36,110 bases of DNA from a virus. Taxonomy: Duplodnaviria > Caudoviricetes. The notes beneath the pieces were generated by a model, which did no database searches, was not told the DNA's origin, and saw only the letters and a program-made list of their open reading frames with translations. Where the stretch lies: the IMG/VR virus record IMGVR_UViG_3300031260_000061, positions 1-36,110 of that record, one strand, 5' to 3'. Below are positions 1,573-7,342 of the stretch, piece by piece; the stretch's first letter is position 1; every line of letters begins with the position of its first letter. The position numbers and the translations under genes are program-made.

Positions 1573-2703
1573 TTATCCAACCACCTTAACCAGCTCATTC
1601 TGGACTCTGGCAACTATCTCCATATCGCTAGCCTTTAGATGAAGGTACCGCTCAGTCATATCCTCGCTTTCATGGCCTACGATCGCCCTGGTGATTTCTC
1701 CCTGTACTCCAGATGCAATAAGACGCGTGTTAAAAAAGTGACGCCAGGAGTGGAAACATAGATTGCGCTTCTCGTGATCGATCCCTAAGCTCTCCAGTCT
1801 CGCGTATAACCCATCAAGCAAGCTATCCGGTGACACCGGAGAAACCCCGTTATCAATAGAGAAAATGAAGCCTTCCTCCGGTGCCCAGTGAAGCAGCTCA
1901 TCCCTCAACTTGCCGGGGATTGGTATCTGTCTCTCTTTGTCCGCCTTGGTGGTCTTGGTCCCCACTGTGCGATCATACGAATGTGTGACTACTAGATGGT
2001 CATCTTTTACATCATCTTTTACCAGGGCGCGAATTTCACCTTGCCTCATACCTGTCACGGCGGAGAGATAAGATGCCAACCACGCAAGTTGATTGTCCCA
2101 GGCGTCCCTGTTCTCTAGGATACGCTTCGCTTCTTCAACAGTAAAGGTTCCCCGCTTCCTGTAATTGTCTGCCAACTTGTGCACCTTGAGAACGGGGTTA
2201 CTGGGAATCAATTCACGCTTCACAGCAACATCTAGCATGTCTTTAAGCATCCGTAACATCTTATTCGCCGTGCTGTTTGCTAAGGGAGGGTAGCGTTTAC
2301 CGTCAACAGTTCTTGGCTTGATAAGACCAAGGAGCCACCTGTTTACCATGTCCGGCGTGATGTCAGTAAGAAGGCAATCTCCGAAAGTCGGTAGGATATT
2401 TTTTCTCATGCTATGGCGATTATTGCGGCAAAGGGTCTGAGAAAATTTATAACCCCTCAGTATCTTATCAGTTACGATAGGGCATTTGCCCCAGATCCAG
2501 AATGGCTCAGCGAATTCCCGGAAAGTCATCTTGTCTTGTCGACCTGGTATGAGTGCATCCTCTTTAAGCAGTGCCATACAATACGCATTGGCAGCACTCT
2601 TATTTGTCTGCCCAGTGGAATACCTACGCCGCTTGCCTTGTTTGTCGTATGCGAGATAGTACCAGACGTCTCCTACCTTGGTTAATGTGTACGGTTGTCT
2701 CAT
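1573..2703 (-). CDS. int: Tyrosine recombinase (phage integrase)
   Basis: Catalytic set: TGMRQGEI (R), FHSWRH (HxxR), VGH, TERY (Y). N-terminal arm-binding-like domain; adjacent to attP. Confidence 0.96.
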   Translation of the reverse strand: MRQPYTLTKVGDVWYYLAYDKQGKRRRYSTGQTNKSAANAYCMALLKEDALIPGRQDKMTFREFAEPFWIWGKCPIVTDKILRGYKFSQTLCRNNRHSMRKNILPTFGDCLLTDITPDMVNRWLLGLIKPRTVDGKRYPPLANSTANKMLRMLKDMLDVAVKRELIPSNPVLKVHKLADNYRKRGTFTVEEAKRILENRDAWDNQLAWLASYLSAVTGMRQGEIRALVKDDVKDDHLVVTHSYDRTVGTKTTKADKERQIPIPGKLRDELLHWAPEEGFIFSIDNGVSPVSPDSLLDGLYARLESLGIDHEKRNLCFHSWRHFFNTRLIASGVQGEITRAIVGHESEDMTERYLHLKASDMEIVARVQNELVKVVG

Positions 2704-2816: not shown

Positions 2817-2870
2817 TGCGGTAGACTGGACTTGAACCAGCACAAGATTTCTCCCACTAGCACCTCAAGC
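2817..2870 (-). other. attP core: 3' half of tRNA-Leu(GAG)
   Basis: The minus strand reads GC-TTGAGGT-GCTAG (anticodon loop, GAG), a long variable arm, GCTGG-TTCAAGT-CCAGT (T arm) and CTACCGC-A (acceptor 3' strand). No 5' half is present; it lies next to int. Confidence 0.88.
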
Positions 2871-2882
2871 CGATGTCCATCT

Positions 2883-2980
2883 GTATATCAGTGTATCTGT
2901 AAGTATCACACAGTATCATAAGTGGGTATGTTGAAAGGTTTTACTGTATCATACTGTATCTTTGTGTATCTAAAAGTATC
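2883..2980 (+). repeat. Two arrays of GTATC phased at exactly 10 bp (probable Xis/RDF binding sites)
   Basis: GTATC at 2893, 2903, 2913 (GTATA at 2883) and at 2946, 2956, 2966, 2976; located between the att core and the distal arm sites. Confidence 0.75.
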
Positions 2981-3548
2981 ATTGCAATTGTGCCGAGTTT
3001 TGTGCCGAGTTAGAGAAGGTGGATTCATACAATTCTTTGAACCCTGAGGTGTCTACAGTGAAGGAGTATGCCCTTTTATATGTGAGATTAATAGCAAATG
3101 AAGTCTCACCTACGACAGAGAGACTTTCAATCAGATCATTCCAGGCATTGCCAAATAGGTCATATCTGTTTGGGACCATTGGAGTAATCGTATTAGTATA
3201 AATATTTGCCATTCCGTCTTTAATTCGTAATTCATTTTCTCGGTACGGCCACTCGATGATCTTTCCTTCCTCGTACATTTCAATTGCAGCAATGCCTTTG
3301 CTGATTATTAGGTGTACCTCAACCGGCTTCCTCTTTGTGCTCAGCGACGATTCGGTAAGATTACCCTGAATCGGCTTCATTGTTGTTATATACCTCTCTT
3401 CTGTATCTTGTCCAAATTCATCAACAAAAGTCTTAACAGTCCATACAGGCTGATTTGATTGATCTATCTTCATATTCTCGGACAGCCCAGTTCCGAAAAC
3501 TAGGCAGGCAGAAGCTAGGACAAACACCACCATCACAAATTTTTTCAT
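2979..3548 (-). CDS. Exported/membrane-anchored protein in the lysogeny operon (possible superinfection exclusion or lysogenic conversion)
   Basis: MKKFVMVVFVLASACLVFG signal peptide; RBS aaggag upstream on the minus strand; sits between repressor and integrase. Confidence 0.6.
   Translation of the reverse strand: MKKFVMVVFVLASACLVFGTGLSENMKIDQSNQPVWTVKTFVDEFGQDTEERYITTMKPIQGNLTESSLSTKRKPVEVHLIISKGIAAIEMYEEGKIIEWPYRENELRIKDGMANIYTNTITPMVPNRYDLFGNAWNDLIESLSVVGETSFAINLTYKRAYSFTVDTSGFKELYESTFSNSAQNSAQLQ
2988..3011 (+). repeat. Perfect 12-bp tandem repeat TTGTGCCGAGTT x2; putative integrase arm-type sites
   Basis: Shares the GTGCCGA core and 12-bp spacing with 2716-2735; lies inside the 3' end of the upstream CDS. 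Confidence 0.7.
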
Positions 3549-3622
3549 TGTTAATCTCCTTTTAAGTTTCACACTTGTACATATAGTGATATCTTAACTA
3601 TGGGTTATTGGAAATGTCATCA

Positions 3623-4033
3623 CTATACCGGCAGTTTAATTTGTTTTCCTGTACTATCATAGGCAGGGATATTCCAAGATGTAAGCATACTTTTAAGTAA
3701 TCTAAGTTGAGAAGCATCGCATTGAACAACCCTCCATATAAGCCCTTTTAAATCAGCATCCGTTGAAAGGAGCTTGTACAACGGATCTGTATCTTCAAAA
3801 GTGCTTGCAATACTACCATATAACAGGTAGTCAAGTGAGACGTTCAAGGCGATTGCAATCTTTCCGGCGTTCTCCAGGCTGGGGAGCTCTGTTCTTGTGC
3901 GATTCGACATTATTGTCTTGTACGAGATACTCCATTCCTGACAAATGCTTTTAAACTTCATAGCATTCTGCTTTGCAACAACATTTACGCGATCCCAGAA
4001 CCTTTCGGGTGCCATATCGACTTTTGTTTTCAT
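3623..4033 (-). CDS. CI-like XRE-family HTH repressor
   Basis: ELPSLENAGKIAIALNVSLDYLLYG is a typical XRE HTH end; divergent from the early lytic operon; no S24 peptidase domain. Confidence 0.8.
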   Translation of the reverse strand: MKTKVDMAPERFWDRVNVVAKQNAMKFKSICQEWSISYKTIMSNRTRTELPSLENAGKIAIALNVSLDYLLYGSIASTFEDTDPLYKLLSTDADLKGLIWRVVQCDASQLRLLKSMLTSWNIPAYDSTGKQIKLPV

Positions 4034-4085: not shown

Positions 4086-4168
4086 ATACCGGAAAAATGG
4101 AACTTTTTTGTTGACAATACCGGAATTCCGGTCTAAAGTCGAAACATGAACAAAAATAACCGGAATAA
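4086..4168 (+). promoter_or_regulatory. Early lytic promoter (TTGACA 4111-4116, 17 bp, TAAAGT 4134-4139) with operator repeats
   Basis: Perfect palindrome ACCGGAATTCCGGT (4119-4132) in the spacer; additional ACCGGAA half-sites near 4088 and 4159. Confidence 0.8.
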
Positions 4169-4322
4169 CCAAACTTCACACATCGTCATACAAAGATTCT
4201 CCGAACAAGAGAAAGAGACCATAAAGAAGGCTATCAATAAAACATCGGTGCGCAGACCCATGTTCTACCACGATGCAATTATTGCATTTGCGACCTTCCT
4301 ACTGAGTGAGGATGCCCAATGA
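4146..4322 (+). CDS. 58-aa Cro-position regulator, possibly ribbon-helix-helix (not in ORF track)
   Basis: MNKNNRNNQTSHIVIQRFSEQEKETIKKAINKTSVRRPMFYHDAIIAFATFLLSEDAQ. The ATG sits at the predicted transcription start; its stop overlaps the next start (ATGA). Confidence 0.65.
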   Translation: MNKNNRNNQTSHIVIQRFSEQEKETIKKAINKTSVRRPMFYHDAIIAFATFLLSEDAQ

Positions 4323-4585
4323 CTCTACTTTCCCCCGTACAAGTAGCTGATTACCTCCAGCTCTCAGAGACGCAAGTAAGAAGGCTCCTGGCATCAAATG
4401 AAATCCCTCACTTTAAGATTGGGAGAGTGAATCGCGTCGACAAGGATGAACTCGACGCATGGCTTATGAATCGAAAACGGCGTAAGAACTCCATTAGGTC
4501 TTTGACATACAGAAAAGGTACTACCACTACCAAGGCTCCAGCCGGAGAGTCTTCCGGCCTATTAGACAATGAGGACCAAGCATGA
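4319..4585 (+). CDS. xis: Excisionase / MerR-like HTH_17 DNA-binding protein
   Basis: LLSPVQVADYLQLSETQVRRL...IPHFKIGRVNRVDKDELDAWL is a classic Xis-type winged HTH. Confidence 0.85.
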   Translation: MTLLSPVQVADYLQLSETQVRRLLASNEIPHFKIGRVNRVDKDELDAWLMNRKRRKNSIRSLTYRKGTTTTKAPAGESSGLLDNEDQA

Positions 4586-4728
4586 ATAGATTGCCAATCG
4601 TTCTGTTTCTGCTCTGGAACCGTAAGGACTACGGCTACAACTTCTACTGCGTATGCGGCCCCAGGAGAGACAGATTCACCCCTACCAATACAACGATGAA
4701 GCTGCTCAAGTGGCTACACCCCGCTTAG
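4582..4728 (+). CDS. 48-aa hypothetical protein (not in ORF track)
   Basis: ATGA overlap with the xis stop and upstream gagga; MNRLPIVLFLLWNRKDYGYNFYCVCG... Confidence 0.45.
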   Translation: MNRLPIVLFLLWNRKDYGYNFYCVCGPRRDRFTPTNTTMKLLKWLHPA

Positions 4729-4825
4729 CATCCACGCTGCCTGAAACAGGCTTCTTTGAGTCAAACAAAACTACATAGACATATCGGCAGTCCGGTTGCG
4801 GACACATATTTACTGGGCTGCCAAC

Positions 4826-4891
4826 GGGGCTATGGAAGGGAGTTGCTCCATCTCCCAAGGCCAAAGAGAGGTTCGAATCCTCTAAGCTCCA
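4826..4891 (+). ncRNA. D-armless tRNA-like element with Ala-type acceptor stem
   Basis: GGGGCT/AGCTCC-A acceptor with G3:U70 and discriminator A; perfect T arm AGAGG-TTCGAAT-CCTCT; a single hairpin GGGAG/CTCCC replaces the D and anticodon arms. Confidence 0.6.
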
Positions 4892-5006
4892 TACCCCGTA
4901 TGGGGGAATATCCAAAGACAGCCGGAAAGACGGCAGAAAATTAATTCACAATTCGTTTCTGGAAAACATTCTCGGTTACTTAGCCTGTGCGGTAGCCGGG
5001 GAACCT

Positions 5007-5141
5007 AGGGAAGTGGCGGAATTGGTAGACGCTACCAGTGTATGACTGAGGGAAAACCGTATAACGGACAACCCAACATTATACAGAATGTGTTGAATAA
5101 GAAGGTTCAGCAAAATGCAGGTTCGAATCCTGCCTTCCCTA
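5007..5141 (+). ncRNA. Expanded tRNA-like element (Leu-type D arm, ~66-nt extra region, degenerate anticodon arm)
   Basis: AGGGAAG/CTTCCCT-A acceptor; TG-GCG-GAATTGGTAGA-CGC D arm; GCAGG-TTCGAAT-CCTGC T arm; middle part non-canonical. Confidence 0.7.
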
Positions 5142-5301
5142 AAACCACTACTGCTTAGCCTGAGCGACAGTAAGGTTTCTCAAAAAGGGACAGGGTCCGA
5201 CTTTGACCCCATTGACTGGTTGGCCACCAGAAGAACCCGCAACGGCCATCAATTACAGTACAGCGACCTGTCACCGAGACAAACCGCTGAAAGGAGCAAC
5301 A

Positions 5302-5985
5302 ATGGCAATTAATCTAAAGAGCACGAGGGATGTGTCGTCTTCCGGCGTAAAGATCCTTGTGCATGGCATCAGTGGAGCAGGAAAGACCTCACTGATAAAG
5401 ACGCTTCCCCGTCCCCTGGTACTGAGTGCTGAGGCGGGACTACTGAGCTTACGCGGAGCAGATATCCCTTATATAGAGATACACAGCCTCGCAGAGCTGG
5501 GAGAAGCGTATGAGTATTTGTTTACCGAGGATGCGCGTAAGCAGTTCGAGAGCGTAGCGCTGGATTCAATCTCTGAGATCGCTGAGGTTGTGCTTAGCTA
5601 CGAAAAGAAGGTAGCAAAAGACCCCAGACAAGCCTATGGCGCCACCCAAGACCAGATGGCTGACCTTATCCGTAGCTTCCGCGATCTGGAAGGCTACAAC
5701 GTCTACTTCTCTGCTAAGACGGAGAAGGATAAGGATGAGACAGGCCGTATGCTCTGGGCCCCAATGATGCCAGGTAACAAGATGGGACAAGCGCTCCCTT
5801 ACTTCTTTGATGAGGTATTCGCTCTCCGTGTCGAGAAGGCTGAAGACGGAAAGACGTACCGCATGATCCAGACCGATACCGACGGTGAATGGTCCGCAAA
5901 GGACCGCAGCGGCAATCTGGAAATGTGGGAAGAGCCAGACCTCGGAGCAATTATCGAGAAAATCAAGGGGGATGTGAATGGCTAA
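5302..5985 (+). CDS. Sak4-like AAA ATPase / single-strand annealing recombinase
   Basis: Walker A GISGAGKT, VALDSISE, PYFFDEV, AKDRSG; RBS aaggag before ATG 5302; followed by an SSB-like gene. Confidence 0.8.
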   Translation: MAINLKSTRDVSSSGVKILVHGISGAGKTSLIKTLPRPLVLSAEAGLLSLRGADIPYIEIHSLAELGEAYEYLFTEDARKQFESVALDSISEIAEVVLSYEKKVAKDPRQAYGATQDQMADLIRSFRDLEGYNVYFSAKTEKDKDETGRMLWAPMMPGNKMGQALPYFFDEVFALRVEKAEDGKTYRMIQTDTDGEWSAKDRSGNLEMWEEPDLGAIIEKIKGDVNG

Positions 5986-6407: not shown

Positions 6408-6899
6408 ATGTCAAGATTAGGACAAATTTATCAGGCAGCAGAGCTGCCGGAGAACGACCGGAATTTTGACCCCATTCCTGCTGGATGGTACACCGTACAA
6501 GTAAAGGAATCGGAGCTCAAGGACAGCAAGAGTGGAGAGGGTCAATACATCAATATCCAATGGGAAGTCCAAGGGCCATCCTATGAAGGAAGAATCGTAT
6601 TTGACCGTATCAATATCCGCAACAACGGACCAAACAGAGAGACGGTAGAACGTATTGGTCTTTCCCAACTCAGGGAAATCATGACCGCTTGTGGTCTTCC
6701 GAAAGTTGAAGACACTGACGAGCTAATCGGATGCCGGTGTGAAATCAAGGTAGACATCGACAAGAAGCCGAGCCCTGGTTACGACCCCGGTAATATCGTC
6801 AAGAACTACCGAGCGCTCAAGGGTAGTCCTGCTCCTCAGGTGGTGTCAACGAAAGCTCCAGCCCCAGCGGCAGCTTCCACTCCTCCTTGGAAGCGTTGA
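6408..6899 (+). CDS. DUF669-like single-stranded DNA-binding protein
   Basis: FDPIPAGWY...GQYINIQWEV...YEGRIVFD, Pro/Ala tail ending PPWKR; next to Sak4. Confidence 0.75.
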   Translation: MSRLGQIYQAAELPENDRNFDPIPAGWYTVQVKESELKDSKSGEGQYINIQWEVQGPSYEGRIVFDRINIRNNGPNRETVERIGLSQLREIMTACGLPKVEDTDELIGCRCEIKVDIDKKPSPGYDPGNIVKNYRALKGSPAPQVVSTKAPAPAAASTPPWKR

Positions 6900-6979
6900 G
6901 CCGAAACCCCCTCTCCACTGAGGGGGTCCACCGGAGCTGCCCCACCGGTGCTGATGATGGCAGGGCAAGGAGCTATGAA

Positions 6980-7342
6980 ATGGAAAAACATGCAAGAATT
7001 GTTGTCTACTTCCCCGACGGTACCGCCCGTCAAGTGTTAGGATTGTCTGCTGCGGCAGAGAAAGCAGGACTCAGTGTTTCACGAGTGGGCACCCTTATCA
7101 GGACTGGCGGACATTCAAAGGCTGGATTCAGCTTTGCTTACGCTGATGATTATGAGCCAGAAATTAAGAAGAAGAAAACGTTCAAGCTAACCAATCGCAT
7201 TACCGGTGAAACAAGAACCATACACGGATATACAAAAGCAGCAGACAGCATCGGGTGTTCGCGTATGGCCCTTGTGTATGCAGTACGCCATGGACGCAAC
7301 ATAGGCAAATGGGAAGTGAGAGCAATAGGAGAGTTGAAGTAA
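6980..7342 (+). CDS. Small DNA-binding protein with two NUMOD1-like HTH repeats
   Basis: Two segments GLSAAAEKAGLSVSRVGTLIRTG and GYTKAADSIGCSRMALVYAVRHG; no nuclease domain. Confidence 0.55.
   Translation: MEKHARIVVYFPDGTARQVLGLSAAAEKAGLSVSRVGTLIRTGGHSKAGFSFAYADDYEPEIKKKKTFKLTNRITGETRTIHGYTKAADSIGCSRMALVYAVRHGRNIGKWEVRAIGELK

Follow-up and report, generated by a model that had tools for sequence, protein, structure and literature searches.

A conserved, alanine-marked tRNA top-half mimic within an early-region array of tRNA-like scaffolds in a temperate phage

Overview

Between the excisionase gene (xis) and the sak4 replication gene of a temperate phage lies element 1, a 66-nt tRNA-like sequence that is a real, conserved fold without a proper codon-reading arm. 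It belongs to a small array of tRNA scaffolds whose middles are exchangeable. The reading that we favor, with a probability of roughly 0.4, is that the cluster consists of host tRNA-processing sites, which would cut the early transcript and release stable, non-decoding RNAs. Throughout, "the window" is the whole 36,110-base stretch analyzed, a complete phage record with direct terminal repeats.

Genome organization and setting of the RNA cluster

PHROG matches over the 41 ORFs scanned give a temperate gene layout (Table 1). Past sak4, the rightward genes are ssb, a Cas4-like exonuclease, helicase, primase and virion genes, and the site of element 1 is the gap between xis and sak4, among the early rightward genes. 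Close relatives are the IMG/VR contigs L004, L005 and L006, each with Sak4 99% identical; these and the window are referred to below as the four genomes. No taxa other than Sphaerochaetaceae and Spirochaetae are named among the 88 integrase homologues, so the phage, a virus of anaerobic bacteria, probably infects a free-living spirochaete of the Sphaerochaetaceae. One member of the 84% Sak4 cluster carries the label Clostridia.

Table 1. Coordinates of features in the window and at related loci (L numbers denote loci outside the window).
Feature	Location	Strand	Basis or remarks
Integrase	1573-2703	-	PHROG match
Repressor	3623-4033	-	PHROG match
Sigma-70-like promoter facing xis, RNA cluster and sak4	4111-4139	+	consensus match only, 10/12
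Excisionase/HTH gene (xis), upstream neighbor of element 1	4319-4585	+	phrog_66, E 1.8e-10
48-aa ORF	4582-4728	+	open in 3/3 close relatives; no Pfam match
Putative terminator (hairpin plus U-rich tail) upstream of RNA cluster	4739-4760	+	consensus match only; 3 found vs 1.5 expected
11-pair hairpin ending 3 nt before element 1	4786-4822	+	fold
Element 1, 66-nt tRNA top-half mimic	4826-4891	+	sequence, fold, comparison of relatives
Internal hairpin of element 1, 5 pairs, 9-nt loop	4838-4856	+	fold
Hairpin directly past element 1	4894-4906	+	fold; both arms substituted in L005 and in contigs of runs X9 and X10
Hairpin with conserved 12-nt loop (4980-4991), copy 1	4970-5002	+	
Element 2, tRNA-like scaffold	5007-5141	+	Rfam tRNA 38.9 bits; comparison of strains
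Hairpin with same 12-nt loop (5155-5166), copy 2	5149-5172	+	
Sak4-like ssDNA annealing protein, first gene past RNA cluster	5302-5985	+	phrog_124, E 6.5e-56
Type II hammerhead ribozyme, same gene run, right after ssb-like gene	6899-6969	+	43.6-51.4 bits, cut-off 37
Element 2 counterparts	L004:2089-2215; L005:3097-3166; L232:1389-1513		tRNA-Leu-like scaffolds
L232-C scaffold	L232:1389-1513		Leu-type D arm, non-canonical T loop
L232-A scaffold	L232:1658-1740		G3·U70, A73, 3-pair D arm, long middle arm
L232-B scaffold	L232:1811-1876		66 nt, D-armless, A3-U70
TLD-only tmRNA-like genes	L107:623-689; L100:1501-1567; L087:1501-1559; L096; L098; L092; L228; L148	- (L087)	
Short-D class examples	L091, L094, L099, L113, L116, L120-L125, L127, L129, L130, L132, L134, L137, L139, L143, L147, others		alignment of 45

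ARAGORN found no canonical tRNA gene in the phage. The 3' part of a tRNA-Leu(GAG)-like sequence lies at 2817-2870 (minus strand), between the integrase and a variable membrane-type gene; it occurs in L004 and L006 too, has no CCA at its end and is the probable attP of the phage. Element 1 sits away from this att-like site. The gene between att and the repressor (2979-3572 of the window, minus strand) and the repressor/promoter region differ between the window and L004, and we read these differences as swappable immunity and accessory modules.

Several other RNA features surround the cluster. The 12-nt hairpin loop of Table 1 recurs, identical or nearly so, on five different stems upstream of sak4 (two in the window, L007:71 and 181, and L232:1779) and is confined to this phage group among 325 loci, making it a candidate protein-binding or antitermination site. 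The hammerhead ribozyme is common to L004, L005 and L007, with stem changes in L007; a 151-aa ORF (6887-7342) is called over it, and the true start of that ORF may be later.

Sequence and fold of element 1

The acceptor of element 1 has its 5' strand at 4826-4832 and its 3' strand at 4884-4890, followed by A73 at 4891. The original prediction gave the acceptor as GGGGCT/AGCTCC-A with a G3:U70 wobble and an A discriminator, all of which are present along with G1-C72 and G2-C71, and needs one correction: positions 7 and 66 form an A·A mismatch, so the stem has six pairs. It also described a perfect T arm, no D stem, a single internal hairpin and no encoded CCA, and sequence and fold agree on each point. 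The T stem (4867-4871/4879-4883) has five pairs and closes a canonical 7-nt loop, the acceptor branch has a 7/5 layout, and A73 is followed by TAC. From a canonical tRNA-Ala, element 1 lacks the D arm, a 5-pair anticodon stem with a Y32-U33 loop, and a UGC, GGC or CGC anticodon. As had been anticipated for tRNA gene finders, ARAGORN makes no call here, and Rfam returns just a 16-bit cyano_tmRNA match to the T-arm part (cut-off 70).

By minimum free energy alone, element 1 does not stand out (z -1.39, with 22 of 200 shuffles folding equally well). Its acceptor plus T-arm arrangement is not chance: the window holds two such top halves, one of them with G3·U70 and A73, and the corresponding averages over 200 dinucleotide-shuffled genomes are 0.02 and 0.0. 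The original prediction does not include the second look-alike, which lies 115 nt downstream of element 1. The 731-nt region around element 1 is strongly structured (z -4.72, 20 shuffles).

With a 3-nt trailer, the acceptor stem forms at 0.99-1.0 in all four genomes. With 45-nt flanks on both sides, its probability is 0.0 in the window (where it is out-competed by 3.0 kcal/mol), 0.07 in L004, 0.71 in L006 and 0.98 in L005. A downstream G-run beats the acceptor by 1-3 kcal/mol in long-context folding of the window and L004, and the 3' arm of the hairpin directly past element 1 can compete with the acceptor stem in the window.

Conservation in close relatives

Across the four genomes, 1 of 66 sites varies within element 1 versus 39 of 355 in the flanks (Fisher p 0.007), or 20 of 212 in the non-coding flanks alone (p 0.02). 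The sole change is at T-loop position 59; the 34-nt middle is invariant and the A7·A66 mismatch is present in all four. A 56-nt stretch upstream (4757-4812) is likewise invariant, so low variation is not unique to element 1. Contigs from four sequencing runs of four studies carry many differences outside element 1 and none inside it among the differences listed; three of the runs span the element fully, and run X8 covers it from 4842 onward. One of the 24 listed runs is recorded as RNA, and it contains 0.09 of the words. A coding cause of the conservation was considered and rejected, because a 1-nt insertion at 4824 frameshifts both overlapping ORFs (4756-4944, plus strand; 4706-4915, minus strand) in all three relatives.

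These counts bear on the idea that element 1 is a functionless tRNA-Ala gene that has decayed or recently suffered a deletion. Its first ten bases do resemble the start of a canonical tRNA-Ala, and decay would be in keeping with the A7·A66 mismatch, the misses by ARAGORN and Rfam, the loss of element 2 in some strains and the equally invariant stretch at 4757-4812. Against decay stand the low number of variable sites, with the single change in the T loop, the lack of any listed difference within the element in the run contigs and the compensatory changes relative to L232-A described below. The original prediction had named a full tRNA-Ala at this position in close relatives as a finding that would count against it, and none was seen in the three close genomes, the contigs of the four runs or one distant ortholog. 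By these comparisons the decay explanation appears largely refuted, and we regard it as improbable.

L007, whose Sak4 is 83% identical, has neither element 1 nor element 2 in the 326 nt upstream of sak4, and none of the other, more distant Sak4 loci outside L232 (see below) has such an element near sak4, so element 1 is dispensable in the wider group. Compared by blastn with 50,697 annotated phages, the 731-nt region had no match, and the 66 nt gave short matches in 112 records, none covering 80%; the one match inspected, a KVP40 pseudo-tRNA, has only a T-arm stretch in common with element 1. A scan for the conserved sak4 leader recovered just the four known IMG/VR relatives. The integrase scan returned four loci, with one new record (G001, 62% complete) that has neither sak4 nor a T-arm motif.

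A distant relative and the scaffold array

Among 80 metagenome Sak4 loci, L232 (73%) alone has T-arm motifs just upstream of sak4. It is syntenic with the window, the order repressor, cro, xis, small ORF, cluster and sak4 being represented in L232 by Arc-like, RHH, HTH_17, small ORF, cluster and sak4. Its cluster contains three scaffolds (Table 1), and one of these, L232-A, we take as the ortholog of element 1. Nine of the 12 stem pairs are identical between the two, pair 4:69 and one T-stem pair are changed on both sides, and 7:66 is paired in L232-A; G1-C72, G2-C71, G3·U70 and A73 are kept. Since L232-A has a 3-pair D arm, the absence of a D arm is not conserved, and "D-armless" describes element 1 accurately without extending to its ortholog. 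A scan for the GGGACU acceptor returned four loci, none resembling L232-A.

Element 2 has a 7-pair, non-alanine acceptor (G3-C70), a tRNA-Leu-type D arm and a T arm, all kept among strains. Its middle measures 103 nt in the window, 95 nt in L004 and 38 nt in L005, the anticodon/variable region being replaced by unrelated inserts despite 99% identical Sak4. A contig of run X8 carries yet another form, whose arms are 116 letters apart, and element 2 is absent from L006 and from one contig of run X11.

The two scaffolds of the window and the three of L232 give five distinct examples in which 59 of 60 acceptor and T-stem cells pair. Each comparison contains 2-8 compensatory pairs, a level reached by 0 of 5000 shuffles in a control that ignores relatedness and in which the scaffolds had been chosen because they pair; the compensatory changes come from one distant relative, L232. 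For the T stem alone, 40 of 40 cells are paired over eight rows. A73 is found in all five scaffolds, G3·U70 in two, exactly one per divergent phage, and an encoded CCA in none. The middles are 34, 51, 34, 103 and 93 nt long.

A proposed role in processing of the early transcript

Under the processing reading, the cluster would be transcribed from the rightward early promoter. RNase P would cut before G1, and trimming from the 3' side would proceed to A73. Cutting would split the message into an xis portion and a portion with the sak4 replication genes, each with new ends. The host would add CCA to the released element 1 RNA, which, as the sole G3·U70 carrier in each phage, could then be alanylated. 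The main job would be processing and release, as in a phage t-element and like the biogenesis of P4 CI and P1 C4.

Directly seen are the fold and its conservation, compensatory pair changes, and arrays of two or three scaffolds with unrelated middles. The processing reading is preferred because the constant part of the scaffolds is what RNase P and the 3'-end enzymes read, and the variable part is what the ribosome reads. It also draws on what RNase P is described as accepting: the E. coli enzyme cleaves model substrates made of an acceptor and T stem (PMC4919922), and RNase P matures P4 CI and P1/P7 C4 RNA (PMC5499578). The acceptor and T stems covary inside a polycistronic unit with no decoding arm, as expected of an RNase P-processed phage RNA or t-element. 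The hammerhead 2 kb downstream on the same strand fits an early message cut into pieces, the role proposed for prophage hammerheads (PMC3088659). An RNase P/Z processing signal was the last option listed in the original prediction, and with acceptor and T stems kept by covariation and middles left free, it is now the best-supported role.

Several observations count against the processing reading. Pure punctuation needs neither an invariant 34-nt middle nor a G3·U70 that is kept in L232 while the next pair changes. The acceptor is out-competed in long-context folds of the window and L004, though not of L005, and the T loop of L232-C is non-canonical. Loss of the D stem raises RNase P miscleavage in a model substrate (PMC4919922). 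The first two of these points, the invariant middle and the kept G3·U70, keep two other roles alive, one as an alanyl-charged decoy and one in antisense pairing.

Element 1 is probably alanylatable by AlaRS, to judge from its bases: G3·U70 is the main determinant of alanylation by this enzyme (PMC9976931), and G3·U70, A73 and G2-C71 are present in element 1 and kept in L232-A, with CCA not encoded. The released RNA might therefore act in trans, taking CCA and alanine and then binding EF-Tu or AlaRS, or soaking up a tRNA-directed defense enzyme early in infection, processing being its biogenesis only. The retention of G1-C72, G2-C71, G3·U70 and A73 relative to L232-A, while 4:69 and a T-stem pair change on both sides, argues for such a decoy, as does the single G3·U70 scaffold in each of two divergent phages. 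The att-like tRNA-Leu fragment, which ends without CCA, suggests that the host adds CCA itself. Against these, three of the five scaffolds are non-alanine, A7·A66 breaks the acceptor/T stack in all four close genomes, and the comparison covers two lineages. Element 1 and L232-A also share no anticodon-like loop, so there is no common target for decoying an anticodon nuclease. We consider the decoy unlikely, if still a serious option.

The scaffold might instead display a C-rich loop that is antisense to the ribosome-binding site of sak4, or to further Shine-Dalgarno sequences, and dampen the early replication genes along the lines of P4 CI and P1 C4. The P4 CI and P1/P7 C4 RNAs act antisense. 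In element 1, positions 4842-4849 are an exact 8-nt complement of 5293-5300 in the sak4 Shine-Dalgarno region. Of 29 annotated starts, that of sak4 pairs best with the loop (-15.5 kcal/mol, compared with -14.1 and -13.5 for the two that follow). L232-B, 66 nt and D-armless, has an unpaired anti-Shine-Dalgarno run with an 8-nt match to the Shine-Dalgarno of a short upstream ORF. The element 1 match is, however, short and was found post hoc, being one of nine listed plus-strand complements of at least 8 nt; loop and target do not covary, since L232-B lacks a match to the sak4 site of its own phage and L007 has a comparable sak4 site but no element in the 326 nt upstream. No self-target stands out for the middle in a duplex search within the phage: the best duplexes genome-wide (-33 to -35) are no better than those of eight shuffled middles (-28.5 to -40.9). 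Extended antisense pairing within the phage was likewise rejected, the longest exact complement of the middle being 10 nt and the duplex energies falling within the shuffles. An antisense role is accordingly doubtful.

A bolder proposal, which we rate as a long shot, treats the xis-sak4 gap as a cassette of tRNA top-half carriers whose middles would be the working part, cut out and stabilized by host tRNA enzymes. Element 1 would then couple alanine charging to an anti-Shine-Dalgarno loop gating the first replication gene, as an amino-acid-sensitive lysis-lysogeny switch. If the middles are working cargo, the array would be a natural version of the tRNA-scaffold trick from RNA engineering.

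Other short alanine-acceptor sequences

A pattern for short alanine-acceptor top halves matched 26 viral loci and at least 122 genome loci, with at least 133 distinct sequences. The matches are mixed, comprising tmRNA 3' ends, att fragments, true mini-TLDs (e.g., L107 and L100) and a 67-69-nt short-D class. By rough regex classes, 17 of the 133 listed sequences were set aside as apparent 3' ends of whole tmRNA genes (all four checked were confirmed by ARAGORN, plus L141) and 23 as apparent att-site tRNA-Ala fragments. In actinobacterial genomes (L126, L133, L146, L159, L193, L197 and others), a short stretch preceding the tRNA-Ala 3' fragment re-pairs the acceptor, giving 46-63-nt minihelix-like forms at probable att sites.

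The short-D class consists of tRNA-like genes in many phyla and some phages. In its members a mini D hairpin begins at base 8, the anticodon arm is extended and carries a YU-NNN loop, and 0-1 nt lead on to the T arm; their G3·U70 alanine acceptor was fixed by the search pattern and is not an independent finding. The anticodons include CUA, UAA, CCA, UUC, ACC, GAU, GAA and UAG, and if active, such genes would insert alanine at stop codons or at codons for other amino acids. In 12 of 38 loci checked, the nearest ORFs include an IS1595 or IS1 transposase. One phage, L094, carries two in tandem beside a Mom-family gene (1501-1569 and 1582-1648, minus strand), with UAA and CUA (amber) loops. We found no description of this class in the open-licence literature.

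The existence of such a class, with its many anticodons, lends something to the idea that element 1 is a D-armless decoding tRNA placing alanine at Glu (GAG) codons, and a U·U closure of its hairpin would give a 7-nt loop with a central CUC. In that loop base 33 would be G and base 37 C, the arm would be separated from the acceptor by 5 nt and from the T arm by 10 nt, and L232-A has a different loop. Element 1 does not show the class's combination of traits. On a model built from 45 hand-picked members it scores 33.9 bits, at the level of non-members sharing only the ends (32.1-42.0), compared with 50.2-66.3 for held-out members (L206, L196, L182, L105 and L089, the first three being close kin of training rows). 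Decoding is hardly credible for element 1.

Comparison with known systems

Genes for TLD-only tmRNAs are known, and that of phage DS6A inhibits host tmRNA in E. coli; CDS-less plastid tmRNA genes of about 65 nt are also described (PMC4131195, PMC11915505). SmpB contacts are described at the TLD elbow and D-loop (PMC3968760). We compared element 1 with E. coli ssrA and five other tmRNAs, DS6A and six short TLD-like sequences. A stemless D-loop GG..GAC ending at nt 18-22 is found in five of the six tmRNAs (including E. coli ssrA), DS6A and five of the six short sequences, and is absent from element 1 and L232-A. A 3-nt GAC/CAC linker joins helix 2 to the T stem in all six tmRNAs and in DS6A; the linker is AAG in element 1 and AGC in L232-A. 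Of the TLD features, element 1 has the acceptor (G3·U70 and A73, with six pairs and A·A) and the canonical T stem-loop.

These comparisons argue against element 1 being a tag-less mini-tmRNA that titrates SmpB and blocks trans-translation as DS6A's does, a role the original prediction had raised. Such a role would suit the acceptor type, the missing D stem and a size near that of the CDS-less tmRNAs (PMC11915505), and GG at 9-10 might extend to the T loop. On RF00023 (cut-off 47), scored for L232-A and the window, L232-A reaches 26.2 bits and the window gives no match. Single-stranded sequence after the acceptor amounts to 0-5 nt rather than 11-14, and the T arm is reached through a linker that is 10 nt long or contains a stem. 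With both the GG..GAC D-loop and the GAC/CAC linker missing, we do not file element 1 as a TLD, and SmpB titration is very improbable. Lacking the TLD motifs and scoring at non-member level on the class model, element 1 belongs in neither the TLD group nor the short-D class.

DS6A's gene (JN698994, L312:579-658; PMC4131195, PMC11915505) nevertheless resembles element 1 in being phage-borne and short. Both have a G3·U70 and A73 alanine acceptor, a canonical T arm, no D stem, no tag frame and no encoded CCA. The D-loop of DS6A, 13 nt with GAC at its end, its H2-like helix and its CAC linker are all lacking in element 1, whereas the A7·A66 mismatch and the array with non-alanine siblings are particular to element 1. 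Further DS6A-like cases of 59-68 nt, with the D-loop motif and GAC/CAC linker and several with encoded CCA, occur in viral contigs and MAGs (Table 1); some of these loci may be att fragments.

Non-decoding tRNA-like RNAs of phages are thus already known (DS6A; T4 RNA C and D, PMC3014915), and in the open-licence literature we found no description of a scaffold array with one alanine-marked member per phage. Phage tRNA mimics of this kind are invisible to ARAGORN and Rfam. The locus offers a natural comparison, with constant stems, freely changing middles, one syntenic site and one alanine-marked scaffold per phage, and it separates the alanine-mimic idea from the SmpB-decoy idea.

The proposed processing role has its nearest counterparts elsewhere. 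P4 CI and P1/P7 C4, like element 1, are small structured RNAs of a temperate phage early operon, and their described release by host tRNA processing (PMC5499578) is what we propose for element 1. Plant mitochondrial t-elements are also non-decoding tRNA-like folds and mark transcript ends (PMC4919922, PMC5499578). They are described as organellar and cut by protein-only RNase P (PMC4919922), whereas element 1 belongs to a bacterial phage, keeps alanine identity and has siblings with exchangeable middles. Allo-tRNAs share with element 1 an identity element uncoupled from the anticodon arm; some have G3·U70, and irregular forms occur in polycistrons and mobile DNA (PMC7609411). They are described with 8/4 or 9/3 acceptor branches and long variable arms (PMC7609411), unlike the 7/5 layout and 66 nt of element 1.

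Phage T4 provides a last parallel, likened here by description only. Its RNA C and RNA D have tRNA-like ends. They are made from the tRNA region, their role being given as unknown (PMC3014915), and are non-decoding small phage RNAs linked to tRNA processing, as is proposed for element 1. The T4 RNAs sit in a true tRNA cluster of a lytic phage, and the phage of element 1 carries no canonical tRNA gene.
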